This document shows positions 3,368-62,426 of a stretch of DNA of 64,000 nucleotides, piece after piece. Source of the stretch: Escherichia coli (GTDB lineage: Bacteria > Pseudomonadota > Gammaproteobacteria > Enterobacterales > Enterobacteriaceae); the NCBI RefSeq assembly GCF_044647545.1, contig NZ_CP172818.1. The stretch is one strand, 5' to 3'. How positions within the stretch are numbered: position 1 is the first letter of the stretch; every line of letters starts with the position of its first letter. The notes under the pieces were generated by a model. That model searched no databases. It was not told where the DNA came from and saw nothing but the letters and a program-made list of their open reading frames with translations. Position numbers and translations under genes: made by a program.

Positions 3368-3432
3368 AAAAAAAGGGCCTAAAGCCCAGTTATTCTGTAG
3401 TCAGATAACAAAAAACCCCGATAAATCGGGGC
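3368..3432 (-). terminator. Two tandem hairpin plus U-run structures between metY and rimP (intra-operon terminators/attenuator)
   Basis: Minus-strand RNA: ccccgau-uu-aucgggg followed by uuuuuug (3410-3432), and a weaker gggc...gccc hairpin followed by U7 (3368-3387). Confidence 0.5.
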
Positions 3433-3556
3433 TTTATATAACTGAACCCTATAACCGCAACTGCGGTCTGGAGCACTTTCCAGAAGGATTTTTTCAAATC
3501 CCACTACGAAGGCCGAAGTCTTCACAGTATATTTGAAAAAGGACTCTAAGGGAAAG

Positions 3557-8074: not shown

Positions 8075-9412
8075 TTAAACGGCTTTTACTGCATCGGCGA
8101 TGCGGTGTGCAAATTCAGTCACCTGCGCTTCGTCTTCGCCTTCCACCATCACGCGAATTAACGGTTCGGTGCCGGATTTACGCAACAGCACACGTCCACG
8201 GCTACCCAGCGCCGCTTCAACTTCTGCAGTCACAGCTTTGACTGATTCATGCTCCAGCGGATCGCCGCTACCTGCGGTGTAACGCACGTTTACCAGGATT
8301 TGCGGGAACATTTTCATGCCGCTGCAAAGGTCGTGCAGGCTCATATGGTTACGCGCCATCGCCGCCAGCACCTGCAAACCAGCAACGATGCCGTCACCGG
8401 TAGTGGTTTTATCCAGCAGGATCACATGACCGGAGTTCTCTGCACCGATACGCCAGCCTTTCTCCTGCATTTTTTCCAGTACGTAGCGGTCACCCACTTT
8501 CGCGCGCGCAAATGGAATACCTAACTGTTTCAGCGCCAGTTCAAGCCCCATGTTGCTCATCAATGTACCCACAGCACCTCCACGCAGCTGGCCCTGACGA
8601 AGACCCTCACGCGCGATGATATACATGATCTGATCGCCATCGACTTTATTGCCTTCATGGTCAACCATAATCACGCGATCGCCGTCGCCGTCGAAGGCAA
8701 TACCGAGATCCGCTTTTTCAGCCAGCACACGAGCCTGGAGCGCGCGAACGTCGGTAGCCCCCACTTCGGCATTGATGTTTACACCGTTTGGCTCACAACC
8801 GATAGCGATAACGTTCGCCCCCAGTTCACGCAGCACGTTCGGCGCGATGTGGTAAGTCGCACCGTTTGCACAATCCACCACAATCTTCAGTTCACTGAGG
8901 CTAAGTTCGTTCGGGAACGTGGCTTTGCAAAACTCGATATAGCGACCCGCAGCATCAACGATACGGCTGGCTTTACCCAGTTCTGCCGAATCAACACAGC
9001 TGATCTCTTTTTCCATTTCCGCTTCGATGGCCTCTTCTACTGCATCCGGTAGTTTGGTGCCGTCGATAGAGAAAAATTTAATGCCATTATCGTAGAACGG
9101 GTTATGCGATGCAGATATCACAATTCCGGCCTCTGCGCGGAAGGTACGCGTCAGATAAGCCACGGCCGGTGTTGGCATCGGACCAGTGAAGAGTGCGGAA
9201 AGGCCCGCAGCCGCCAGACCCGCTTCCAGTGCTGACTCCAGCATATAGCCAGAAATACGCGTGTCTTTACCAATAATGATCTTACGGGAGCCGTGGCGCG
9301 CCAGCACTTTACCCGCGGCCCAACCCAGCTTAAGCACAAAATCAGGTGTGATCGGCGCATCCCCTACACGACCACGAATCCCATCGGTACCGAAATATTT
9401 ACGATTACTCAT
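8075..9412 (-). CDS. glmM: Phosphoglucosamine mutase
   Basis: 445-aa [40 protein letters not shown]... with the [10 protein letters not shown] active-site serine motif. Confidence 0.95.
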
Positions 9413-14149: not shown

Positions 14150-14190
14150 GCAAAAAAAATACCGACCCGGGTACAGGTCCCAGGTCAGCT
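14150..14190 (-). terminator. graL: Terminator-like hairpin plus U8 in the greA leader (expected 3' end of the GraL leader RNA)
   Basis: Minus-strand RNA gaccugg...ccggguc hairpin followed by gguauuuuuuuug, about 95 nt upstream of the greA start codon. Confidence 0.4.
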
Positions 14191-14305
14191 ACAATTCACA
14201 TTTTGATAGTCATTTTACCCTGAAGTTCCCGAAGGGTCATCGTTTACTTTATAGGGCGTTGCGCCGTAGTATGACGGCTCGATTCCAGGTTGTTAGCGCG
14301 AGATT

Positions 14306-22154: not shown

Positions 22155-22447
22155 TTAACGAGGCAGAACATCAGCAGGCAAATTATACAATTTCGCCAGG
22201 GTATACACTTTGTCGTTTACCCCCTGAAGCGTCACATTGTTGCCCTGCTTTTTCGCCAGATCGATAAGATGGAGCAGCAGTGCCAGTCCACCCGTATCCA
22301 CGCGAGACACACGGCTAAGATCGATGCTGGTAATCCCCTTCACCGCTTCCTCACGTATTTCCCAAAGCGGTAGCAGAACGTCCTGATCCAGCTCTCCGGA
22401 TAACGCCAGCGTGTCACCCGTCTGCATCCAGCTCAGTGACTCGCTCA

Positions 22448-22448
<1 letters not shown>
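22155..22448 (-). CDS. mlaB: Phospholipid ABC transporter STAS-domain protein MlaB
   Basis: ORF contains MSESLSWMQTGDTLALSGELDQDVLLPLWEIREEAVKGITSIDLSRVSRVDTGGLALLLHLIDLAKKQG...; start moved to MSESL (97 aa); last gene of the mla operon. Confidence 0.8.
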
Positions 22449-23101
<653 letters not shown>

Positions 23102-25466: not shown

Positions 25467-26444
25467 ATGCTTTTAGCTACGGCACTGTTAATTGTTGGTT
25501 TACTTTTGGTCGTTTACAGTGCCGACCGCCTGGTTTTTGCCGCGTCTATTCTTTGCCGAACCTTTGGCATCCCGCCGCTAATCATCGGCATGACGGTGGT
25601 CAGTATTGGTACATCGTTACCAGAAATCATCGTCTCGCTTGCCGCGTCTTTGCACGAACAACGCGATTTAGCCGTTGGTACAGCCCTCGGCTCAAACATT
25701 ATCAATATATTGCTGATCCTCGGTCTTGCTGCGCTGGTTCGTCCTTTTACCGTCCATTCTGATGTTCTACGCCGTGAATTACCCTTAATGTTGTTGGTCA
25801 GCGTGGTGGCCGGTTCCGTACTCTATGACGGACAACTTAGTCGCAGCGATGGTATCTTTCTCCTCTTTCTGGCTGTGCTATGGCTGCTGTTCATTGTTAA
25901 ACTTGCACGTCAGGCTGAACGTCAGGGGACTGACAGCCTGACCAGAGAGCAGCTTGCAGAGTTGCCGCGTGACGGTGGATTGCCCGTCGCGTTTTTATGG
26001 CTCGGCATTGCGCTTATCATCATGCCAGTGGCCACGCGGATGGTGGTTGATAACGCCACGGTGCTGGCGAATTACTTTGCCATCAGCGAGTTGACGATGG
26101 GTCTGACGGCAATTGCTATCGGAACCAGCCTGCCGGAACTGGCAACCGCAATAGCGGGGGTTCGCAAAGGTGAAAACGACATTGCTGTCGGAAATATCAT
26201 TGGCGCAAACATTTTTAATATTGTCATCGTGTTGGGTTTACCCGCGCTGATAACGCCAGGAAAGATTGATCCACTGGCGTACAGTCGTGACTACAGCGTG
26301 ATGTTGCTGGTGAGCATTATTTTTGCGTTGCTGTGCTGGCGGCGCTCCCCGCAATCGGGCCGTGGTGTAGGGGTATTATTAACTGGCGGATTTATCGTAT
26401 GGCTGGCGATGTTGTACTGGTTATCGCCAATACTCGTTGAATAA
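25467..26444 (+). CDS. yrbG: Ca2+/Na+ antiporter-family inner membrane protein YrbG
   Basis: 325-aa hydrophobic ORF MLLATALLIVGLLLVVYSADRLVFAASILCRTFGIPPLIIGMTVVSIGTSLPEIIVSLAASL... with two alpha-repeat GTSLPE motifs. Confidence 0.85.
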   Translation: MLLATALLIVGLLLVVYSADRLVFAASILCRTFGIPPLIIGMTVVSIGTSLPEIIVSLAASLHEQRDLAVGTALGSNIINILLILGLAALVRPFTVHSDVLRRELPLMLLVSVVAGSVLYDGQLSRSDGIFLLFLAVLWLLFIVKLARQAERQGTDSLTREQLAELPRDGGLPVAFLWLGIALIIMPVATRMVVDNATVLANYFAISELTMGLTAIAIGTSLPELATAIAGVRKGENDIAVGNIIGANIFNIVIVLGLPALITPGKIDPLAYSRDYSVMLLVSIIFALLCWRRSPQSGRGVGVLLTGGFIVWLAMLYWLSPILVE

Positions 26445-26457
26445 CTGGAAACGCATT

Positions 26458-27444
26458 ATGTCGCACGTAGAGTTACAACCGGGTTTTGACTTTCAGCAAG
26501 CAGGTAAAGAAGTCCTGGCGATTGAACGTGAATGCCTGGCGGAGCTTGATCAATACATCAATCAGAATTTCACGCTTGCCTGTGAAAAGATGTTCTGGTG
26601 TAAAGGGAAAGTTGTCGTCATGGGGATGGGGAAATCGGGGCACATCGGGCGCAAAATGGCGGCAACGTTTGCCAGCACTGGTACACCTTCATTTTTCGTC
26701 CATCCTGGTGAAGCCGCGCATGGTGATTTAGGCATGGTCACCCCACAGGATGTGGTGATTGCTATCTCTAACTCAGGTGAATCCAGCGAAATCACGGCCT
26801 TAATTCCAGTGCTTAAGCGTCTTCACGTACCGTTAATCTGCATCACCGGTCGCCCGGAGAGCAGCATGGCGCGCGCCGCAGATGTGCATCTGTGTGTTAA
26901 AGTAGCGAAAGAAGCCTGTCCGTTAGGGCTGGCACCGACCAGCAGCACCACCGCCACGCTGGTTATGGGCGATGCCCTCGCTGTCGCGCTGTTAAAAGCA
27001 CGCGGCTTTACTGCTGAAGATTTTGCGCTCTCACACCCAGGCGGCGCACTGGGTCGTAAACTTCTGCTGCGCGTAAACGATATTATGCATACGGGCGATG
27101 AGATCCCGCATGTTAAGAAAACGGCCAGTCTGCGTGACGCATTGCTGGAAGTTACCCGCAAAAATCTTGGTATGACTGTCATTTGCGATGACAATATGAT
27201 GATTGAAGGCATCTTTACCGACGGTGATTTACGCCGTGTCTTCGATATGGGCGTGGATGTTCGTCAGTTAAGTATTGCCGATGTGATGACGCCGGGGGGA
27301 ATACGTGTGCGCCCTGGCATTCTGGCCGTTGAGGCACTGAACTTAATGCAGTCCCGCCATATCACCTCCGTGATGGTTGCCGATGGCGACCATTTACTCG
27401 GTGTGTTACATATGCATGATTTACTGCGTGCAGGCGTAGTGTAA
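26458..27444 (+). CDS. kdsD: D-arabinose 5-phosphate isomerase KdsD
   Basis: ORF ...MSHVELQPGFDFQQAGKEVLAIERECLAELDQYINQNFTLACEKMFWCKGKVVVMGMGKSGHIGRKMAATFASTGTPSFFVHPGEAAHGDLG...; SIS plus tandem CBS domains; start moved to MSHVELQ. Confidence 0.9.
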   Translation: MSHVELQPGFDFQQAGKEVLAIERECLAELDQYINQNFTLACEKMFWCKGKVVVMGMGKSGHIGRKMAATFASTGTPSFFVHPGEAAHGDLGMVTPQDVVIAISNSGESSEITALIPVLKRLHVPLICITGRPESSMARAADVHLCVKVAKEACPLGLAPTSSTTATLVMGDALAVALLKARGFTAEDFALSHPGGALGRKLLLRVNDIMHTGDEIPHVKKTASLRDALLEVTRKNLGMTVICDDNMMIEGIFTDGDLRRVFDMGVDVRQLSIADVMTPGGIRVRPGILAVEALNLMQSRHITSVMVADGDHLLGVLHMHDLLRAGVV

Positions 27445-27464
27445 AGATTCAAGGATAAACAACA

Positions 27465-28031
27465 ATGAGCAAAGCAGGTGCGTCGCTTGCGACCTGTTAC
27501 GGCCCTGTCAGCGCCGACGTTATGGCAAAAGCAGAGAACATTCGTCTGCTGATCCTCGATGTCGATGGCGTACTGTCAGATGGCCTGATTTATATGGGCA
27601 ATAATGGCGAAGAGCTGAAAGCGTTCAATGTTCGTGACGGTTATGGCATTCGTTGTGCGCTCACCTCTGATATTGAAGTCGCTATCATTACCGGGCGAAA
27701 GGCTAAACTGGTAGAAGATCGTTGTGCCACATTGGGGATCACTCACTTGTATCAGGGGCAGTCAAACAAACTGATCGCCTTTAGCGATCTGCTGGAAAAA
27801 CTGGCGATTGCCCCGGAAAATGTGGCTTATGTCGGCGATGATCTCATCGACTGGCCGGTAATGGAAAAAGTGGGGTTAAGCGTCGCCGTGGCCGATGCGC
27901 ATCCATTGTTGATCCCGCGCGCCGATTACGTGACGCGCATTGCTGGCGGTCGTGGCGCAGTGCGAGAAGTTTGCGACTTATTACTCCTGGCGCAGGGCAA
28001 ACTGGATGAAGCCAAAGGGCAATCGATATGA
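27465..28031 (+). CDS. kdsC: KDO 8-phosphate phosphatase KdsC
   Basis: 188-aa ORF MSKAGASLATCYGPVSADVMAKAENIRLLILDVDGVLSDGLIYMGNNGEELKAFNVRDGYGIRC... with HAD motif DVDGVL. Confidence 0.9.
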   Translation: MSKAGASLATCYGPVSADVMAKAENIRLLILDVDGVLSDGLIYMGNNGEELKAFNVRDGYGIRCALTSDIEVAIITGRKAKLVEDRCATLGITHLYQGQSNKLIAFSDLLEKLAIAPENVAYVGDDLIDWPVMEKVGLSVAVADAHPLLIPRADYVTRIAGGRGAVREVCDLLLLAQGKLDEAKGQSI

Positions 28032-28603
28032 GTAAAGCCAGACGTTGGGTTATCATTGTGCTATCACTGGCGGTTCTGGTGATGATCGGCATTAATATGG
28101 CCGAAAAAGACGATACCGCCCAGGTGGTCGTCAACAACAATGATCCCACCTATAAAAGCGAGCATACGGACACGCTCGTCTATAACCCAGAAGGGGCACT
28201 AAGCTATCGATTGATTGCTCAACATGTTGAATATTATTCCGATCAGGCCGTTTCGTGGTTTACGCAGCCGGTACTTACCACGTTTGATAAGGATAAAATC
28301 CCGACATGGTCAGTAAAAGCAGATAAAGCCAAGCTGACCAATGACCGGATGCTCTATTTATATGGACACGTTGAAGTCAACGCACTTGTGCCGGACTCTC
28401 AACTTCGCAGAATCACGACGGATAACGCGCAGATCAATCTGGTGACGCAGGATGTTACCTCTGAAGACCTCGTCACGTTATACGGAACAACATTTAACTC
28501 CAGCGGTCTGAAAATGCGCGGCAACTTACGCAGCAAGAACGCCGAGCTGATTGAAAAGGTTAGAACATCCTATGAAATTCAAAACAAACAAACTCAGCCT
28601 TAA
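28028..28603 (+). CDS. lptC: LPS export protein LptC
   Basis: 191-aa ORF MSKARRWVIIVLSLAVLVMIGINMAEKDDTAQVVVNNNDPTYKSEHTDTLVYNPEGALSYRLIAQHVEYY...; start overlaps the kdsC stop (ATGA). Confidence 0.9.
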   Translation: MSKARRWVIIVLSLAVLVMIGINMAEKDDTAQVVVNNNDPTYKSEHTDTLVYNPEGALSYRLIAQHVEYYSDQAVSWFTQPVLTTFDKDKIPTWSVKADKAKLTNDRMLYLYGHVEVNALVPDSQLRRITTDNAQINLVTQDVTSEDLVTLYGTTFNSSGLKMRGNLRSKNAELIEKVRTSYEIQNKQTQP

Positions 28604-29129
28604 TCTTGTGCTTGCCAGCTCACTTCTGGCCGCCAGCATTCCGGCATTTGCTGTAACCGGAGACACTGATCAGCCGATCCACATTGAATCGGACCAGCAA
28701 TCTCTTGATATGCAAGGCAACGTGGTTACCTTTACCGGTAATGTCATCGTCACCCAGGGCACCATCAAAATTAATGCCGACAAAGTGGTCGTTACCCGTC
28801 CGGGCGGCGAACAAGGTAAAGAAGTGATTGACGGCTACGGTAAACCGGCAACGTTCTACCAGATGCAGGACAATGGTAAACCCGTTGAAGGTCACGCTTC
28901 CCAGATGCACTACGAACTGGCAAAAGATTTTGTCGTTCTGACGGGTAATGCTTATCTGCAGCAGGTCGATAGCAACATTAAGGGCGATAAGATCACTTAC
29001 CTGGTGAAAGAGCAGAAAATGCAGGCTTTCAGCGACAAAGGTAAGCGCGTAACCACCGTTCTGGTGCCGTCGCAGCTGCAAGACAAAAACAACAAAGGCC
29101 AGACCCCGGCACAGAAGAAGGGTAATTAA
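28572..29129 (+). CDS. lptA: LPS transport periplasmic protein LptA
   Basis: ORF ...MKFKTNKLSLNLVLASSLLAASIPAFAVTGDTDQPIHIESDQQSLDMQGNVVTFTGNVIVTQGTIKINADKVVVTRPGG...; start moved to MKFKT (185 aa); overlaps lptC 3' end. Confidence 0.9.
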   Translation: MKFKTNKLSLNLVLASSLLAASIPAFAVTGDTDQPIHIESDQQSLDMQGNVVTFTGNVIVTQGTIKINADKVVVTRPGGEQGKEVIDGYGKPATFYQMQDNGKPVEGHASQMHYELAKDFVVLTGNAYLQQVDSNIKGDKITYLVKEQKMQAFSDKGKRVTTVLVPSQLQDKNNKGQTPAQKKGN

Positions 29130-29135
29130 TTCGTT

Positions 29136-29861
29136 ATGGCAACATTAACTGCAAAGAACCTTGCAAAAGCCTATAAAGGCCGTCGCGTGGTAGAAGACGT
29201 CAGCCTGACCGTCAACTCCGGGGAAATTGTCGGTCTGCTGGGGCCAAACGGTGCCGGTAAGACCACCACTTTCTACATGGTTGTAGGCATTGTGCCGCGC
29301 GATGCGGGCAACATCATTATTGATGATGACGATATCAGTCTGCTGCCTCTGCATGCACGCGCGCGCCGCGGTATCGGCTATCTGCCACAGGAAGCCTCCA
29401 TTTTCCGTCGCCTCAGCGTTTACGATAACCTGATGGCGGTACTGCAAATTCGTGACGACTTGTCTGCTGAACAACGTGAAGACCGCGCGAACGAGCTGAT
29501 GGAAGAGTTTCACATTGAGCACCTGCGTGACAGCATGGGGCAGTCACTCTCCGGGGGTGAACGTCGCCGTGTAGAAATTGCCCGCGCACTGGCTGCGAAT
29601 CCGAAATTTATTCTGCTCGACGAACCGTTTGCCGGGGTTGACCCGATCTCGGTTATCGACATTAAACGCATCATTGAACACCTGCGCGACAGCGGCCTGG
29701 GCGTACTGATCACTGACCACAACGTGCGTGAAACACTGGCGGTTTGTGAACGCGCTTATATCGTCAGTCAGGGGCATTTGATCGCCCACGGCACGCCTAC
29801 AGAAATCTTACAAGACGAACACGTTAAGCGTGTATACCTTGGGGAAGACTTCAGACTCTGA
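29136..29861 (+). CDS. lptB: LPS export ABC transporter ATPase LptB
   Basis: 241-aa [56 protein letters not shown]... with Walker A and [16 protein letters not shown] signature. Confidence 0.95.
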
Positions 29862-29908
29862 TAGGGTAGAAGTTTGCGACGTTTTAGCAGGAGAGTACGA
29901 TTCTGAAC

Positions 29909-31342
29909 ATGAAGCAAGGTTTGCAACTCAGGCTTAGCCAACAACTGGCGATGACGCCACAGCTCCAACAGGCAATTCGTCTGTTGCAGTTGTCGACGCT
30001 GGAACTTCAGCAGGAGCTACAGCAGGCGCTGGAGAGTAATCCGCTGCTTGAGCAAATCGACACTCATGAAGAAATCGACACCCGCGAAACGCAAGACAGT
30101 GAAACACTGGACACCGCCGACGCGCTCGAACAAAAAGAGATGCCGGAAGAGCTGCCGCTCGATGCCAGTTGGGACACCATTTACACCGCTGGTACACCAT
30201 CCGGCACCAGCGGTGACTACATTGACGACGAGCTGCCGGTCTATCAGGGCGAAACGACGCAGACCTTGCAGGATTACCTGATGTGGCAGGTCGAGTTGAC
30301 ACCGTTTTCCGACACTGACCGCGCTATTGCTACCTCTATCGTCGATGCCGTTGATGACACTGGTTATCTGACTGTCCCGCTGGAAGATATTCTCGAAAGT
30401 ATGGGCGATGAAGAGATTGACATCGACGAAGTTGAAGCCGTCCTTAAGCGGATCCAACGGTTTGATCCGGTCGGTGTGGCGGCAAAAGATCTGCGTGACT
30501 GCCTGCTGATCCAACTCTCCCAATTCGATAAAACCACGCCGTGGCTGGAAGAGGCCAGACTGATTATTAGCGATCATCTCGATCTGTTAGCCAATCACGA
30601 CTTCCGCACTTTAATGCGCGTCACGCGTCTGAAAGAAGATGTGCTGAAAGAAGCCGTCAATCTGATCCAGTCGCTCGATCCGCGCCCCGGGCAGTCGATC
30701 CAGACTGGCGAACCTGAGTATGTCATTCCAGATGTGCTGGTGCGTAAGCATAACGGTCACTGGACGGTAGAACTCAACAGTGACAGCATTCCGCGTCTGC
30801 AAATCAACCAGCACTACGCCTCGATGTGCAATAACGCGCGCAACGATGGTGACAGCCAGTTTATCCGCAGCAATCTGCAGGATGCCAAATGGTTGATCAA
30901 GAGTCTGGAAAGCCGTAACGATACGCTACTGCGCGTGAGTCGCTGTATCGTTGAACAGCAGCAAGCCTTCTTTGAGCAAGGTGAAGAATATATGAAACCG
31001 ATGGTACTGGCCGATATCGCCCAGGCTGTCGAAATGCATGAATCGACGATATCTCGCGTGACCACGCAAAAATACCTGCATAGTCCACGAGGCATTTTTG
31101 AACTGAAGTATTTCTTTTCCAGTCACGTCAATACCGAGGGCGGCGGCGAAGCTTCCTCCACGGCGATTCGTGCGCTGGTGAAGAAATTAATCGCGGCGGA
31201 AAACCCAGCGAAACCGTTGAGCGACAGCAAGTTAACCTCTTTGCTGTCGGAACAAGGTATCATGGTGGCACGCCGCACTGTTGCGAAGTACCGAGAGTCT
31301 TTATCCATTCCGCCGTCAAACCAGCGTAAACAGCTCGTTTGA
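29909..31342 (+). CDS. rpoN: RNA polymerase sigma-54 factor
   Basis: 477-aa [52 protein letters not shown]... with C-terminal RpoN box [10 protein letters not shown]. Confidence 0.95.
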
Positions 31343-31364
31343 CCCAACCGATAAGGAAGACACT

Positions 31365-31652
31365 ATGCAGCTCAACATTACCGGAAATAACGTCGAGATC
31401 ACCGAGGCACTGCGCGAATTTGTTACAGCCAAATTTGCCAAACTTGAGCAATATTTTGACCGAATCAACCAGGTCTATGTTGTTCTGAAAGTGGAGAAAG
31501 TCACCCACACCTCAGATGCAACACTGCATGTAAACGGTGGTGAAATTCATGCCAGCGCGGAAGGTCAGGACATGTACGCTGCCATTGATGGCTTAATTGA
31601 TAAGCTGGCACGCCAGTTGACCAAACATAAAGATAAACTGAAACAACACTAA
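31365..31652 (+). CDS. hpf: Ribosome hibernation promoting factor
   Basis: ORF contains MQLNITGNNVEITEALREFVTAKFAKLEQYFDRINQVYVVLKVEKVTHTSDATLHVNGGEIHASAEGQDMYAAIDGLIDKLARQLTKHKDKLKQH; start at ATG 31365 (95 aa). Confidence 0.9.
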   Translation: MQLNITGNNVEITEALREFVTAKFAKLEQYFDRINQVYVVLKVEKVTHTSDATLHVNGGEIHASAEGQDMYAAIDGLIDKLARQLTKHKDKLKQH

Positions 31653-31769
31653 TTGTCCGGGCAATTAGCATGTGCATGGCGGCCTGTTGTGCGGCACAAC
31701 GGGCCATTTGTACGGTTAATGCTCCGAGCCTGTTCCACTGTTTGAGTGGGCAGGTTCTTAGGTGAAATT

Positions 31770-32261
31770 ATGACAAATAATGATACAACTCTACAGCTTA
31801 GCAGTGTTCTTAACAGGGAATGTACGCGAAGCCGCGTCCACTGTCAGAGCAAAAAACGCGCCCTGGAAATCATCAGCGAGCTGGCGGCGAAACAACTTAG
31901 CCTGCCGCCTCAGGTGGTTTTTGAAGCTATCCTGACGCGGGAAAAAATGGGCAGTACCGGTATCGGCAATGGTATTGCCATTCCGCATGGCAAACTGGAA
32001 GAAGATACTCTGCGTGCCGTTGGCGTTTTCGTTCAGCTCGAAACGCCTATAGCTTTCGATGCCATCGACAACCAACCGGTGGATTTACTTTTTGCCCTGC
32101 TGGTGCCGGCAGACCAAACTAAAACGCACCTGCATACTCTGTCACTGGTGGCGAAACGTCTGGCGGACAAAACCATCTGCCGCCGTTTACGCGCAGCCCA
32201 GAGCGATGAAGAGCTGTATCAAATCATTACGGATACCGAAGGTACTCCGGATGAAGCGTAG
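31770..32261 (+). CDS. ptsN: Nitrogen-related PTS EIIA-Ntr protein PtsN
   Basis: ORF ...MTNNDTTLQLSSVLNRECTRSRVHCQSKKRALEIISELAAKQLSLPPQVVFEAILTREKMGSTGIGNGIAIPHGKLEED...; start moved to MTNND (163 aa). Confidence 0.9.
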   Translation: MTNNDTTLQLSSVLNRECTRSRVHCQSKKRALEIISELAAKQLSLPPQVVFEAILTREKMGSTGIGNGIAIPHGKLEEDTLRAVGVFVQLETPIAFDAIDNQPVDLLFALLVPADQTKTHLHTLSLVAKRLADKTICRRLRAAQSDEELYQIITDTEGTPDEA

Positions 32262-32306
32262 TTATTCGGTAATGTCTCTTTTAGACGTTGTGAGGAGAAA
32301 CAGTAC

Positions 32307-33161
32307 ATGGTACTGATGATCGTCAGCGGACGTTCAGGTTCAGGTAAATCTGTCGCCCTGCGTGCGCTGGAAGATATGGGTTTTTACTGCGTGGATAACC
32401 TTCCCGTAGTGTTGTTACCCGATCTGGCTCGAACTCTGGCCGATCGCGAGATTTCTGCCGCCGTCAGCATTGATGTTCGTAATATGCCGGAGTCACCAGA
32501 AATATTCGAACAGGCGATGAGTAACCTGCCTGACGCTTTCTCACCGCAACTACTGTTCCTGGATGCCGACCGTAATACCTTAATTCGTCGTTACAGTGAC
32601 ACGCGCCGACTGCATCCGCTTTCCAGCAAAAACCTGTCGCTGGAAAGTGCTATCGACAAAGAAAGCGATTTGCTGGAGCCTCTGCGTTCGCGAGCGGATC
32701 TGATTGTCGATACCTCAGAAATGTCCGTTCACGAGCTGGCTGAAATGCTGCGTACCCGTCTGCTGGGTAAACGTGAACGCGAACTGACCATGGTCTTTGA
32801 GTCTTTTGGCTTCAAACACGGTATCCCTATCGATGCAGATTACGTCTTTGACGTGCGCTTCTTGCCGAACCCGCACTGGGATCCGAAACTGCGTCCAATG
32901 ACAGGTCTGGATAAGCCTGTCGCCGCGTTCCTCGACCGCCACACAGAAGTACACAATTTTATCTACCAGACGCGAAGCTATCTTGAGCTATGGTTACCTA
33001 TGCTGGAAACCAACAACCGTAGCTACCTGACGGTCGCCATTGGTTGTACCGGCGGGAAGCACCGTTCGGTGTATATTGCAGAGCAACTGGCAGACTACTT
33101 CCGCTCGCGCGGTAAAAACGTCCAGTCACGCCATCGTACGCTGGAAAAACGCAAACCATGA
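32307..33161 (+). CDS. rapZ: RNase adapter protein RapZ (YhbJ)
   Basis: 284-aa [75 protein letters not shown]... with P-loop GRSGSGKS. Confidence 0.9.
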
Positions 33162-33430
33162 CCGTCAAGCAAACTGTTGAAATCACAAACAAGCTGGGCA
33201 TGCATGCCCGGCCTGCAATGAAGCTGTTTGAATTAATGCAAGGTTTTGACGCTGAAGTGCTGTTACGTAATGACGAAGGCACCGAGGCTGAAGCCAACAG
33301 CGTTATTGCACTGCTGATGCTGGATTCTGCCAAAGGACGGCAGATTGAAGTTGAAGCGACCGGTCCGCAGGAAGAGGAAGCACTGGCCGCCGTTATCGCC
33401 CTCTTTAACTCTGGTTTTGATGAAGATTAA
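33158..33430 (+). CDS. npr: Phosphocarrier protein NPr (HPr paralog of the nitrogen PTS)
   Basis: 90-aa [93 protein letters not shown]; overlaps rapZ stop by 4 nt. Confidence 0.9.
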
Positions 33431-33575
33431 TCTTCATCACTTTGACATTCAAATCCCTTCAAGCTCCCCCGGCAATAAGAAAAGCGCGTACTGAAATCGT
33501 TATCAATCAACGTCAATTGTACATTTCGTGCGCTTTTTACTTTCAGAAGAACCTTAAGAAAACCTTAAGAAGCAT

Positions 33576-33592
33576 TGTTTAGATTTCGTTTA
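33576..33592 (+). promoter_or_regulatory. Candidate PhoP box (direct hexamer repeat TGTTTA-5nt-CGTTTA) upstream of yrbL
   Basis: tgtttagatttcgttta lies 51-67 bp upstream of the yrbL ATG; matches the (T/G)GTTTA-N5-(T/G)GTTTA PhoP-binding architecture. Confidence 0.4.
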
Positions 33593-33642
33593 AGTTAATC
33601 GACCATACTGGAGATCGTCAGAAAATATTTCCAGGAGATGGC

Positions 33643-34275
33643 ATGATTCGCTTATCTGAACAAAGTCCCCTGGGCACCGGAAGACATCGGAAATGTTATG
33701 CGCATCCGGAAGATGCCCAACGCTGTATCAAGATTGTCTACCATCGTGGCGATGGTGGCGATAAAGAGATCCGCCGTGAGTTAAAGTACTACGCGCATCT
33801 TGGTCGTCGGTTAAAAGACTGGAGTGGAATACCGCGCTATCACGGTACCGTTGAGACGGATTGCGGAACCGGTTATGTCTACGATGTGATTGCAGATTTT
33901 GACGGCAAACCCTCCATTACGCTGACCGAATTTGCTGAACAATGCCGTTACGAAGAAGACATTGCACAACTGCGCCAGATACTGAAACAGCTGAAGCGTT
34001 ATTTGCAGGATAACCGTATCGTGACGATGTCGCTGAAGCCGCAGAATATCCTCTGTCACCGCATCAGTGAGTCAGAGGTTATCCCCGTCGTCTGCGACAA
34101 CATTGGTGAAAGCACATTGATTCCACTGGCGACCTGGTCGAAGTGGTGTTGTCTGCGTAAGCAAGAGCGGTTATGGAAACGATTTATCGCCCAACCGGCG
34201 CTGACTATTGCCCTGCAGAAAGATCTGCAACCTCGTGAAAGCAAAACGCTGACCCTCACTTCGCGCGAAGCTTAA
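33643..34275 (+). CDS. yrbL: PhoP regulon protein YrbL (Mg2+-starvation induced)
   Basis: 210-aa [92 protein letters not shown]... Confidence 0.8.
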
Positions 34276-35000
34276 TCCAGCTGGTGTTGTTGCATAAACG
34301 ACTCACCGCCTAACTGATACATCTGCCGTAAAATCCACGCCTGACGGCTACGCACGTAGCCCGATGGCGCGGAGACTTTGAAACGAAGTGGATTAGGTAA
34401 TACAGCTGCCAGTAATGCAGCTTCCGACCGGGTAAGCTTGCTCGCGGGTTTGTGGAAATAACGTTGTGCCGCAGCTTCGACGCCAAACACACCGTCGCCA
34501 AATTCGGCGATATTCAGGTAAACCGTCAGGATACGCTTTTTGCTCCAGACCGTTTCTATCCCCAGCGTTAATCCAGCTTCCAGCCCTTTTCGAACCCAGC
34601 TACGCCCATCCCATAAAAAGAGATTTTTGGCAGTCTGCTGAGAAATCGTTGAAGCACCGCGAATACGGTTTTCATTGCGCTCGTTGTGCGCCAGGGCTTT
34701 CTCAATGGAAGCGACATCAAAGCCCCAGTGCTCAGGAAATGTCTGATCTTCTGCGGCAATCACCGCCAGTCCCATCCACGGCGAGATTTGATCCATACTG
34801 ACCCAGTCAGAATGTGCCACGTAACGAAAATTGCCATGCAGCCAGGCGCTGACCTGTCGCTCGACCATTACCGCTGAGAAAGGAACAGGCGCAACGCTAA
34901 ACAACGCGATGCCCCCGCCCCAAAAAACGGCGAGGACAACCATTAACCGCAAAAGAAAACGGCGAACGAAACTAAACACCGTTAAGCGGCTTTTACTCAT
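34272..35000 (-). CDS. mtgA: Monofunctional peptidoglycan glycosyltransferase MtgA
   Basis: 242-aa ORF with N-terminal TM segment and transglycosylase motifs ...[16 protein letters not shown]... and [13 protein letters not shown]... Confidence 0.9.
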
Positions 35001-35650
35001 TCAGCCAGAACCAGCACGCGGGAAACCAGCTTATCAATGCCGCTCGCCGCTTCTGCAATGTTCTGCGCCAGCATATATGCCGGGGTGGTGACAATCTTAT
35101 TGTCTTCATCAACCACGATATCATCGACAGGACACGGCACATGCTCCGCGCCCATCTCTTCCAGCACTTCTGCGGTATCAATATCAGTACCGATGGTCAA
35201 ACGCAGCGGGAAATCGAAAATTTTCGGCAGCATCGCCGGGGCAATACACATAAAACCAAGCGGTTTTCCGGCCTGATGCATCGCTTGTGCCAGCGCCTTT
35301 AATTCACGGTCAACGGTGCATTCGCGACCAAGACTGGCAAAATTGCTTAAATTCTTCGCCGCGCCAAACCCCCCCGGCACAATCAACGCATCCAGTTCAG
35401 CGGCATCGGCCTGGGCCAGAGGACGGATTTCACCGCGCGTTATTCGTGCCGCTTCAATCAGCACATTGCGCGTTTCCGTCATCGCTTCGCCCGTTAAATG
35501 GTTGATAACATCAACCTGCTGCTTATCCGGTGCAAAGCAGACCGCCTGCGCACCGCTGCGTGAAATAGCTAACAACGTCAACACCGCTTCATGAATTTCA
35601 GAACCGTCATAAACGCCGCATCCGCTCAGAATTACGCCAATTTTCTTCAT
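34997..35650 (-). CDS. elbB: DJ-1/PfpI-family glyoxalase-like protein ElbB
   Basis: ORF ...[78 protein letters not shown]...; start moved to MKKIGV (217 aa); overlaps mtgA start. Confidence 0.85.
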
Positions 35651-35767
35651 TGTGATCATCCTTTCGCAATTGACTGAAACACATTAATTTTTTTAATAAA
35701 AATGCTACGCATCACACATTTAACTGATTCATGTAACAAATCATTTAAGTTTTGCTATCTTAACTGC

Positions 35768-35888
35768 GTGCGGCCTGAAAAACAGTGCTGTGCCCTTGTA
35801 ACTCATCATAATAATTTACGGCGCAGCCAAGATTTCCCTGGTGTTGGCGCAGTATTCGCGCACCCCGGTCTAGCCGGGGTCATTTTTT
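35768..35888 (+). ncRNA. arcZ: ArcZ (RyhA/SraH) Hfq-dependent sRNA, convergent with and overlapping the arcB 3' end
   Basis: Sequence GTGCGGCCTGAAAAACAGTGCTGTGCCCTTGTAACTCATCATAATAATTTACGGCGCAGCCAAGATTTCCCTGGTGTTGGCGCAGTATTCGCGCACCCCGGTCTAGCCGGGGTCATTTTTT, ending in a hairpin plus T-run. Confidence 0.8.
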
Positions 35889-44375: not shown

Positions 44376-45788
<1,413 letters not shown>

Positions 45789-45909
45789 GGTGTTCTGGAA
45801 AGCGCCTCGCATAATCTGAAGAAAACCAATGTAATACGCACATCTGGATTGTTACCGGCCGATGCAGATCCCGGCGTATAGCTGATTCCATTATTCAACA
45901 CTGCGCCAT

Positions 45910-47096: not shown

Positions 47097-48429
<1,333 letters not shown>

Positions 48430-48433
<4 letters not shown>

Positions 48434-60282: not shown

Positions 60283-61350
60283 ATGTTTGTGAAGCTCTTA
60301 CGTTCCGTTGCGATTGGATTAATTGTCGGCGCTATTCTGCTGGTTGCCATGCCTTCGCTGCGCAGCCTTAACCCGCTTTCCACTCCGCAATTTGACAGTA
60401 CCGATGAGACGCCTGCCAGCTATAATCTGGCGGTTCGCCGCGCCGCGCCAGCGGTGGTTAACGTTTACAACCGTGGTTTGAACACCAACTCTCACAACCA
60501 GCTTGAGATCCGCACCCTGGGATCCGGTGTAATCATGGATCAACGCGGTTATATCATCACCAATAAACACGTCATCAACGACGCCGATCAGATCATCGTC
60601 GCCTTACAGGATGGACGTGTATTTGAAGCATTGCTGGTGGGATCTGACTCTCTAACCGATCTGGCGGTACTTAAAATTAATGCCACTGGCGGTTTACCTA
60701 CCATTCCAATTAATGCACGTCGCGTACCGCACATTGGCGACGTGGTACTGGCGATCGGTAACCCGTACAACCTCGGGCAGACCATTACCCAGGGGATTAT
60801 TAGTGCCACGGGTCGAATCGGTCTGAACCCGACCGGGCGGCAAAACTTCCTGCAAACTGATGCTTCCATTAACCACGGTAACTCTGGCGGCGCGCTGGTG
60901 AACTCGCTGGGCGAACTGATGGGCATTAACACGCTGTCGTTTGATAAGAGTAACGATGGCGAAACGCCGGAAGGTATCGGCTTTGCGATTCCTTTCCAGT
61001 TAGCAACCAAAATTATGGATAAACTGATCCGCGATGGTCGCGTGATCCGCGGCTACATTGGTATCGGCGGACGTGAGATCGCACCACTGCACGCGCAGGG
61101 CGGTGGTATAGATCAACTGCAAGGGATCGTGGTTAATGAAGTGTCACCTGACGGCCCGGCGGCGAATGCGGGTATTCAGGTCAATGATTTGATTATTTCG
61201 GTGGATAACAAACCGGCCATCTCTGCTCTGGAGACGATGGATCAGGTGGCGGAAATTCGCCCTGGCTCGGTGATCCCGGTTGTAGTGATGCGTGATGATA
61301 AGCAGTTAACGCTGCAGGTCACCATTCAGGAATATCCGGCAACCAATTAA
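60283..61350 (+). CDS. degS: Sigma-E pathway site-1 serine protease DegS
   Basis: 355-aa ORF MFVKLLRSVAIGLIVGAILLVAMPSLRSLNPLSTPQFDSTDETPASYNLAVRRAAPAVVNVYNRG...; GNSGGAL motif, single PDZ domain. Confidence 0.9.
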   Translation: MFVKLLRSVAIGLIVGAILLVAMPSLRSLNPLSTPQFDSTDETPASYNLAVRRAAPAVVNVYNRGLNTNSHNQLEIRTLGSGVIMDQRGYIITNKHVINDADQIIVALQDGRVFEALLVGSDSLTDLAVLKINATGGLPTIPINARRVPHIGDVVLAIGNPYNLGQTITQGIISATGRIGLNPTGRQNFLQTDASINHGNSGGALVNSLGELMGINTLSFDKSNDGETPEGIGFAIPFQLATKIMDKLIRDGRVIRGYIGIGGREIAPLHAQGGGIDQLQGIVVNEVSPDGPAANAGIQVNDLIISVDNKPAISALETMDQVAEIRPGSVIPVVVMRDDKQLTLQVTIQEYPATN

Positions 61351-61365
61351 GTCGTGCGCTCAAAA

Positions 61366-61396
61366 CAAAAAACCGGAGTCTGTGCTCCGGTTTTTT
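61366..61396. terminator. Bidirectional rho-independent terminator between convergent degS and mdh
   Basis: aaaaaa-ccggag-tctgtg-ctccgg-tttttt. Confidence 0.55.
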
Positions 61397-61412
61397 ATTA
61401 TCCGCTAATCAA

Positions 61413-62426
<1,014 letters not shown>

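Follow-up and report, generated by a model that had tools for sequence, protein, structure and literature searches.

Overlapping stop and start codons between infB and argR of Escherichia coli: ordinary operon junctions and the 32-nt overlap of lptC and lptA

That stop and start codons overlap in bacterial operons is textbook knowledge. A window of 64,000 nt, corresponding to the infB-argR stretch of the E. coli chromosome, contains 43 co-directional gene pairs, eight of which overlap (all positions given here are those of the window). A preliminary description of this DNA held that such junctions imply translational coupling and constrain where alternative start codons can be placed, but does an overlap in itself reveal how the downstream gene is translated? 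Our explanation, in which we place high confidence, is that these are ordinary operon junctions: seven have commonly enriched spacings at which reinitiation or ribosome-assisted unfolding could operate, and lptA would be translated largely independently of lptC termination.

Operons and junction geometry

The region was matched in 5425 of 5426 complete E. coli genomes, several chromosomes being 100% identical over 26437-35000. Gene positions were taken from the RefSeq CDS of a strain 100% identical over that interval and mapped to the window, and the junctions were read directly (Table 1). The stretch under study covers the yrbG-kdsD-kdsC-lptC-lptA-lptB and rpoN-hpf-ptsN-rapZ-npr operons, and gene content, order and sequence identity agree with the known E. 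coli yrbG-lptB and rpoN operons. The yrbG-lptB genes have been described as a six-cistron operon (PMC4986956), and in the other operons the overlapping genes are taken to lie on one transcript, as is established for E. coli. Within yrbG-lptB, the TTG at 26437 opens the longest open reading frame of kdsD, but kdsD is annotated from the ATG at 26458, the aligned start codon in 73 of 73 related species.

Table 1. Positions of the operons, gene junctions and promoter-like motif discussed in the text
Feature	Position	Strand	Description	Basis
folP/glmM	9405..9412	-	folP stop TAA and glmM start ATG inside ATGAGTAA; spacing -8	CDS mapping, sequence read
mlaC/mlaB	22446..22450	-	mlaC stop TAA and mlaB start ATG share base 22448 (TAATG); spacing -1	CDS mapping, sequence read
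yrbG-kdsD-kdsC-lptC-lptA-lptB operon	25467..29861	+	spacings +13, +20, -4, -32, +6	CDS mapping
kdsC/lptC	28028..28031	+	kdsC stop TGA and lptC start ATG in ATGA; spacing -4	CDS mapping, sequence read
Sigma-E-type promoter motif inside lptC	28484..28511	+	GGAACAA-N16-TCTGA, ~54 nt upstream of lptA ATG	by eye
lptC/lptA dual-coding overlap	28572..28603	+	32 nt; lptA start 28572, lptC end 28603; spacing -32	CDS mapping, sequence read
rpoN-hpf-ptsN-rapZ-npr gene cluster	29909..33430	+	spacings +22, +117, +45, -4	CDS mapping
rapZ/npr	33158..33161	+	rapZ stop TGA and npr start ATG in ATGA; spacing -4	CDS mapping, sequence read
yrbL/mtgA convergent overlap	34272..34275	.	yrbL stop TAA (+) and mtgA stop TAA (-) in palindrome TTAA	CDS mapping, sequence read
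elbB/mtgA	34997..35000	-	elbB stop TGA and mtgA start ATG in ATGA; spacing -4	CDS mapping, sequence read
nanK/nanQ	47558..47561	-	nanK stop TGA and nanQ start ATG in ATGA; spacing -4	CDS mapping
nanE/nanK	48430..48433	-	nanE stop TGA and nanK start ATG in ATGA; spacing -4	CDS mapping, sequence read

Five of the overlaps have a spacing of -4 (ATGA), one of -1 (TAATG), one of -8 (ATGAGTAA) and one, lptC/lptA, of -32; same-strand overlap or interleaving of stop and start codons holds at the seven junctions spaced -4, -1 and -8. The seven junctions listed in the preliminary description proved exact in coordinates, geometry and gene names, as judged by CDS mapping and direct reading of the sequence. 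Its "envelope" label suits kds, lpt, mla, mtgA and glmM, but not nanE/nanK, folP or npr. Absent from its list were the nanK/nanQ overlap and the convergent overlap of the yrbL and mtgA stop codons.

Among co-directional pairs with spacings from -35 to +35, 5 of 22 are at exactly -4 (binomial p ~1e-5 against a uniform spread). Spacings from -8 to +6 occur in 10 of 43 pairs in the window (23%) and have been reported for 707 of 2987 pairs (24%) E. coli genome-wide (PMC10666635); the two rates are indistinguishable (p = 1), so the window is typical. An enrichment of overlaps in the window or in envelope genes was considered and rejected, the rate being equal to that of the whole genome. Each of the eight overlaps is an ordinary junction within a well-known E. 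coli operon, and that of lptC and lptA is already published.

Start codons of the downstream genes

How securely are the overlapping starts placed? Five of the eight downstream genes (lptC, npr, mtgA, glmM and nanQ) have no in-frame alternative start upstream, and to this extent the view that the junctions constrain alternative starts is upheld; it does not extend to mlaB, lptA and nanK, which do have one, and in-frame starts occur further downstream in every downstream gene but nanK. The alternatives include TTG 28551 and GTG 28608 for lptA, GTG 28058 and ATG 28082 for lptC, and GTG 48466 and TTG 48472 for nanK, and nanQ begins ATGATGATG, with three ATGs in succession. Public records also hold LptA versions of 191, 192 and 197 aa. 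Such choices are what would be expected if the overlaps were partly annotation artefacts, the true downstream starts lying elsewhere and the genes overlapping differently or not at all. We regard this as highly improbable, as at each junction the annotated Met is aligned as the start codon in 62-80 species, with the exception of elbB/mtgA, for which the nearest start had to be taken in 33 of 62 species owing to N-terminal indels. In distant lptA loci the same ATG is the only available start, an in-frame stop lying 12 nt upstream of it, and initiation at GTG 28608 would cost the LptA signal peptide its lysine-rich beginning. Furthermore, a tetracycline-profiling study (PMC4909307) lists 154 revised starts, and neither that list nor its other tables include any of 24 names, current or old, of these genes, which shows only that their starts were not revised; the genes are likewise absent from the files of an N-terminomics paper.

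Conservation and coupling at the -4, -1 and -8 junctions

A survey of 80 Enterobacteriaceae species (n = 62-80 per junction) found the spacings to be nearly invariant. The kdsC/lptC spacing is -4 in 77 of 78 species and in the distant loci L087, L088 and L094, rapZ/npr is at -4 in 75 of 75, mlaC/mlaB at -1 in 62 of 68 and at -4 in 6, elbB/mtgA at -4 in 58 of 62 and at -1 in 3, and lptC/lptA at -32 in 79 of 80. However, short non-overlapping spacings are conserved as strictly (lptA/lptB +6 in 80/80; rpoN/hpf +22 in 76/76), and spacing conservation therefore does not mark the overlaps as functional.

All prokaryotes show an enrichment of the spacings -4, -1 and -8, and pairs spaced from -4 to +3 couple efficiently (PMC12548453). 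Of the native overlapping pairs tested in E. coli, most proved strictly coupled, bioBF being the one of five that was not coupled (PMC6728339, PMC12548453), and such junctions are enriched for subunits of complexes (30% in E. coli; PMC10666635). The seven junctions at these spacings fall inside the termination-reinitiation window of approximately -8 to +10 nt, and by analogy translational coupling at each of them is plausible, as the preliminary description had supposed. A ribosome ending the upstream gene would be positioned on or beside the downstream start, and the downstream gene could then be translated by reinitiation, or via a site kept unfolded by the passing ribosome, with fresh initiation added wherever the upstream gene contains a Shine-Dalgarno-like sequence. 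A literature search combining lptC, lptA and "translational coupling" returned no paper, and none was found that tests any of these pairs.

Signals for fresh initiation are apparent at several of the starts. Synonymous sites are constrained in the 21 nt preceding the lptC start (entropy 0.65 vs 1.25, p = 0.005), upstream of the npr start (0.44 vs 0.93, p = 0.012) and just upstream of the lptA start, a pattern that indicates putative initiation signals embedded in the preceding genes, and nanK has strong Shine-Dalgarno pairing (-8 to -10 kcal/mol), as nanQ has a strong match. These observations, and the equal conservation of non-overlapping junctions, would also suit overlaps that are neutral by-products of compaction and mutational ease, each downstream gene being started afresh at its own ribosome-binding site with no functional coupling. 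Of the four bases of ATGA, three come with the ATG itself, and a review credits the abundance of -4 spacings, likely, to ease of evolution (PMC12548453); mlaC/mlaB is found at either -1 or -4, and elbB/mtgA at either -4 or -1, without apparent cost, and the bioBF pair shows that an overlap can go uncoupled. We consider this account somewhat unlikely, since mtgA, npr and mlaB are almost without Shine-Dalgarno pairing (-2.7 to -3.3 kcal/mol) and most tested native pairs are strictly coupled (PMC6728339). At npr the pairing is weak (-3.3 kcal/mol); the mtgA start lacks a Shine-Dalgarno match (-2.7 kcal/mol) and is preceded by no additional synonymous constraint (p = 0.59), yet the elbB/mtgA stop/start overlap is kept in 61 of 62 species where nearby synonymous sites vary freely. 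Taken together, the eight overlapped starts were not significantly different from those of other window genes in Shine-Dalgarno strength (p = 0.27) or local folding energy (p = 0.56).

The lptC/lptA overlap and comparison with known systems

The 32-nt overlap of lptC and lptA has been published before (Sperandeo 2006 and Martorana 2011, cited by PMC4986956). It encodes the final 10 codons and the stop of lptC together with the initial 10.7 codons of lptA, the latter, MKFKTNKLSLN, being a positively charged segment that opens the signal peptide. The dual-coding overlap is genuine and conserved; in Enterobacteriaceae, third-codon-position entropy collapses in both frames within it, and both frames are constrained. 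The LptA homologue search listed Enterobacteriaceae only, and distant relatives were reached by a representative search and contig look-ups; among nine divergent loci in which lptC and lptA are adjacent, eight have overlaps of 14-44 nt, all in one phase. The comparison thus makes a mildly new addition, that the overlap appears to be old, with its phase kept, and that the lptA ATG apparently derives from a conserved tyrosine codon of LptC.

Is lptA coupled to lptC? Here the inference of coupling from overlap is weak. The spacing lies outside the termination-reinitiation window, and same-strand overlaps longer than 8 nt are uncommon and show poor coupling in reporter studies (PMC10666635, PMC12548453). 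Coupling is doubtful because it is gone by an overlap of ~25 nt in artificial reporter constructs (PMC12548453), because promoters lie inside lptC, and because LptA is ~5-fold more abundant than LptC. The promoters, lptAp1 and lptAp2, are placed inside lptC and upstream of lptA in PMC4986956, so on part of the lptA mRNA lptC cannot be translated from its start codon. The sigma-E-type motif in lptC, in a region conserved in 79 species, is a candidate for the published lptAp1, a match drawn from sequence; a search of lptC with the sigma-E pattern GAAC-N17-21-TCNAA gave no match, the motif there ending in TCTGA, and a generic scan of 26400-35700 for sigma-70 promoters and terminators gave matches no more numerous than in shuffled sequence.

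In proteome tables, whose steady-state levels also reflect stability and whose units are inferred, the LptC:KdsC ratio is ~0.65-0.75 and the LptA:LptC ratio ~4.5-5; the former is compatible with strict reinitiation but the latter is not, and lptA has extra promoters. Both mRNA and ribosome density climb from kdsD to lptA, with ribosome densities of 91 for kdsD, 131 for kdsC and 214 for lptA, in a table that lacks lptC, npr, mtgA and folP (Burkhardt 2017). Most likely, lptA would be initiated largely independently of lptC termination, through its own embedded ribosome-binding region, and a portion of its mRNA would begin at the promoters inside lptC. An improbable extension is that lptC/lptA forms an ancient phase-keeping module, with the lptA AUG derived from conserved LptC Tyr(-Glu) codons (tATGaa), and has been retained because ribosomes translating lptC tune access to the lptA start and so set the LptA:LptC ratio, rather than for compaction or reinitiation.

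Overlapping stop/start junctions are a long-described form of E. coli gene packing and are already known; those described here occur at background rate and matter little beyond correct annotation. They do call for caution in genetics: deletions or insertions in kdsC, lptC, rapZ, elbB, nanE, nanK, folP or mlaC can affect the sequence around the start of the gene that follows, and in-frame edits in the final 11 codons of lptC alter the LptA signal peptide too. The lptC/lptA pair is also a reminder that translational coupling is not established by overlap alone.

Compared with the known class of -4, -1 and -8 junctions (Brown and Wade 2025), the seven junctions here have the same spacings, are co-directional, lie in known operons and occur at the published frequency, with no difference in sequence. 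That class is enriched for subunits of complexes, whereas here we take LptC and LptA alone among the eight pairs to be proteins known to contact each other. At lptC/lptA, the locus, genes, gene order and 32-nt overlap are those of the published E. coli yrbG-lptB operon, with no difference found. Like other long same-strand overlaps (>8 nt), it belongs to a rare class, and its frame relation is the same as that of the -8 class; its strong conservation and the constraint on both frames set it apart from overlaps produced by mis-called starts.

Overlapping junctions and their genomic setting

The 8.6 kb at 26437-35000 was matched in 5425 of 5426 complete E. coli genomes, several of them 100% identical, and the locus is a known one with known features. 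RefSeq annotation of one identical strain (hereafter the reference strain) places yrbG, kdsD, kdsC, lptC, lptA, lptB, rpoN, hpf, ptsN, rapZ, npr and yrbL on the plus strand and mtgA and elbB on the minus strand. The window extends from infB to argR and differs from the reference strain by a few indels, all outside this region; each annotated CDS was therefore placed anew by blastn. All genes were recovered as full-length CDS with intact frames, apart from infB, truncated where the window begins, and gltD, which departs from the reference strain at its 3′ end.

The seven co-directional overlaps listed in the preliminary description were positioned exactly; an eighth, nanK/nanQ, and the common stop codons of the convergent yrbL and mtgA were absent from its list. 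Its left boundary, 26437, corresponds to the TTG that gives kdsD its longest ORF; kdsD is annotated from ATG 26458, and in all 73 related species compared the start aligned at this codon. The yrbL and mtgA stops lie on a TTAA palindrome, with no space between the two genes for a terminator, and yrbL was detected in only 19 of 80 related loci.

Junctions in the window and their modal spacing among Enterobacteriaceae species (nt; negative, overlap; positive, gap)
Genes	Position in window	Strand	Basis	Modal spacing (species)
kdsC/lptC	ATGA 28028-28031	+	CDS mapping, sequence	-4 (77/78)
lptC/lptA	lptA ATG 28572, 32 nt inside lptC; lptC end 28603	+	CDS mapping, sequence	-32 (79/80)
rapZ/npr	ATGA 33158-33161	+	CDS mapping, sequence	-4 (75/75)
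elbB/mtgA	ATGA 34997-35000	-	CDS mapping, sequence	-4 (58/62; -1 in 3)
nanE/nanK	ATGA 48430-48433	-	CDS mapping, sequence	
folP/glmM	ATGAGTAA at 9405-9412	-	CDS mapping, sequence	
mlaC/mlaB	TAATG, base 22448 common to both	-	CDS mapping, sequence	-1 (62/68; remaining 6, -4)
nanK/nanQ	ATGA 47558-47561	-		
yrbL/mtgA stops	TTAA 34272-34275	yrbL +, mtgA -		
lptA/lptB				+6 (80/80)
rpoN/hpf				+22 (76/76)
mlaE/mlaD				+4 (69/71)

Several other features were recorded in the window. In the window, gltD ends at 45788 (within 45785-45795) and encodes 466 aa ending in ADGI, against 472 aa ending in ADGIMNWLEV in an otherwise near-identical strain; approximately 70 nt, among them a GC-rich hairpin beyond the end of gltD, are replaced relative to that strain, and the junction in one aligned piece had no match among complete E. 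coli genomes. The degS-mdh interval holds an IS4 transposase gene in the reference strain and merely a 62-nt gap in the window (61350-61413). A greA leader (14154-14275, minus strand; Rfam, 125.8 bits) contains a sigma-E-type motif, GAACTT-N16-TCAAA (14202-14228, minus strand), a rimP leader lies at 3368-3468 (minus strand), and the small RNA ArcZ (RF00081, 120.8 bits) lies at 35768-35875 (plus strand) inside the 229-nt elbB-arcB gap.

Conservation, start codons and coupling at the short overlaps

Spacings were compared in 80 loci from different Enterobacteriaceae species, retrieved with LptB and up to 10 kb of flank each. Orthologues were found by tblastn, the upstream gene was extended to its stop, and the start was taken as the codon aligned with E. 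coli Met1. The near-invariance of the spacings marks the junctions as real and under constraint; since short gaps are as fixed as overlaps, selection on overlap as such does not follow.

In the 21 nt preceding the lptC (p = 0.005), lptA (p = 0.010) and npr (p = 0.012) starts, the upstream gene loses approximately half of its variability at third codon positions, which indicates selected initiation signals within these upstream genes. No drop was seen before mtgA (p = 0.59) or mlaB (p = 0.48), and Shine-Dalgarno pairing is nearly nil at both (-2.7 and -3.3 kcal/mol, respectively), so these two may be the strongest candidates for reinitiation with little signal. In published work, how much the Shine-Dalgarno motif contributes differs from pair to pair (PMC6728339, PMC12548453).

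For lptC, npr, mtgA, glmM and nanQ, reading upstream from the annotated start reaches a stop in the frame before any in-frame ATG, GTG or TTG. For lptA there is an alternative TTG at 28551, seven codons upstream, and longer LptA versions are annotated in some public records; in distant lptA loci an in-frame stop precedes the same ATG by 12 nt, and there is no other start. Initiation of lptA at the next candidate downstream, GTG 28608, would deprive the signal peptide of its lysine-rich beginning. Tetracycline profiling revised the starts of 154 genes (PMC4909307); its tables contain none of the junction genes, for which 24 names, current and old, were checked. The nanQ gene opens with three consecutive ATGs (ATGATGATG, 47553-47561, minus strand), only the first overlapping the nanK stop, and which of them serves as the start cannot be told from sequence.

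Are these genes translationally coupled, as the preliminary description held? Coupling efficiency peaks at -4 to +3 nt (PMC12548453), and the native overlapping pairs of E. coli that were tested proved mostly strictly coupled, bioBF being the exception (PMC6728339). By analogy, coupling at the seven short overlaps is plausible; a literature search found no experiment on it at these junctions.

Initiation and age of the lptC/lptA overlap

Unlike the seven short overlaps, lptC and lptA share 32 nt, and their coupling is doubtful. In artificial constructs coupling was lost by -25 nt (PMC12548453), and the promoters lptAp1 (sigma-E dependent) and lptAp2 are located inside lptC (PMC4986956). A good match to the sigma-E consensus, GGAACAA-N16-TCTGA, lies inside lptC at 28484-28511 (plus strand), approximately 54 nt before the lptA ATG, is kept among related species and is probably lptAp1; transcripts from it begin inside lptC and cannot be translated from the lptC start codon. 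Three proteome tables, whose units are inferred, put LptA at approximately 4.5-5 times the level of LptC, and LptC at approximately 0.65-0.75 of KdsC (PMC8144880). Both messenger RNA and ribosome density increase between kdsD and lptA (PMC5318159). As an excess of LptA over LptC is impossible by strict reinitiation, lptA is most likely initiated largely on its own, or via extra transcripts, or both.

Third codon positions vary less inside the overlap than outside it, with 0.32 against 0.82 bits in the lptC frame and 0.04 against 1.26 bits in the lptA frame, a pattern that marks both frames as translated. The comparison also took in eleven divergent LptA representatives, with 34-53% identity to the E. 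coli protein. Two contigs lacked the upstream gene, with lptA relocated elsewhere in one, leaving nine loci with lptC or a remnant upstream (L085-L090, L092-L094), their starts being gene-caller predictions. Eight overlap, by 14, 14, 20, 20, 20, 26, 32 and 44 nt, in one frame relation throughout; in the ninth, the AT-rich L085, lptC is truncated, the spacing is +21 and the former tail coding is still readable. A conserved LptC tyrosine codon, TAT, together with the G of the codon after it, supplies the lptA ATG (tATGaa) in E. coli and in five or more of the divergent loci. The shared frame relation and tyrosine codon suggest that the overlap is old, with a length that varies with the LptC tail, and it occurs well outside Enterobacteriaceae. 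The operon of one distant relative (L094, LptA 35% identical; positions 418, 963-966, 2037-2040) is even more compact, with spacings of -1 (kdsD/kdsC), -4 (kdsC/lptC), -14 (lptC/lptA) and -4 (lptA/lptB).

Comparison with E. coli operons

Among the 22 co-directional pairs spaced -35 to +35 nt in the window, five are at exactly -4 (p ~1e-5 versus a uniform spread). Spacings of -8 to +6 occur in 10 of its 43 co-directional pairs (23%), and in 707 of 2987 (24%) genome-wide (PMC10666635); the clustering is above a chance spread but not above the E. coli genome rate. The overlaps were thus correctly observed, but they are what E. coli operons normally show. Nothing at these junctions would surprise a specialist, being already known, and no open question becomes testable through them. 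The short overlaps fall into the standard -4, -1 and -8 class of co-directional pairs, the three spacings classically enriched in bacteria and archaea (PMC12548453), and the 32-nt lptC/lptA overlap with its internal promoters is the same as that already described for the published E. coli locus.
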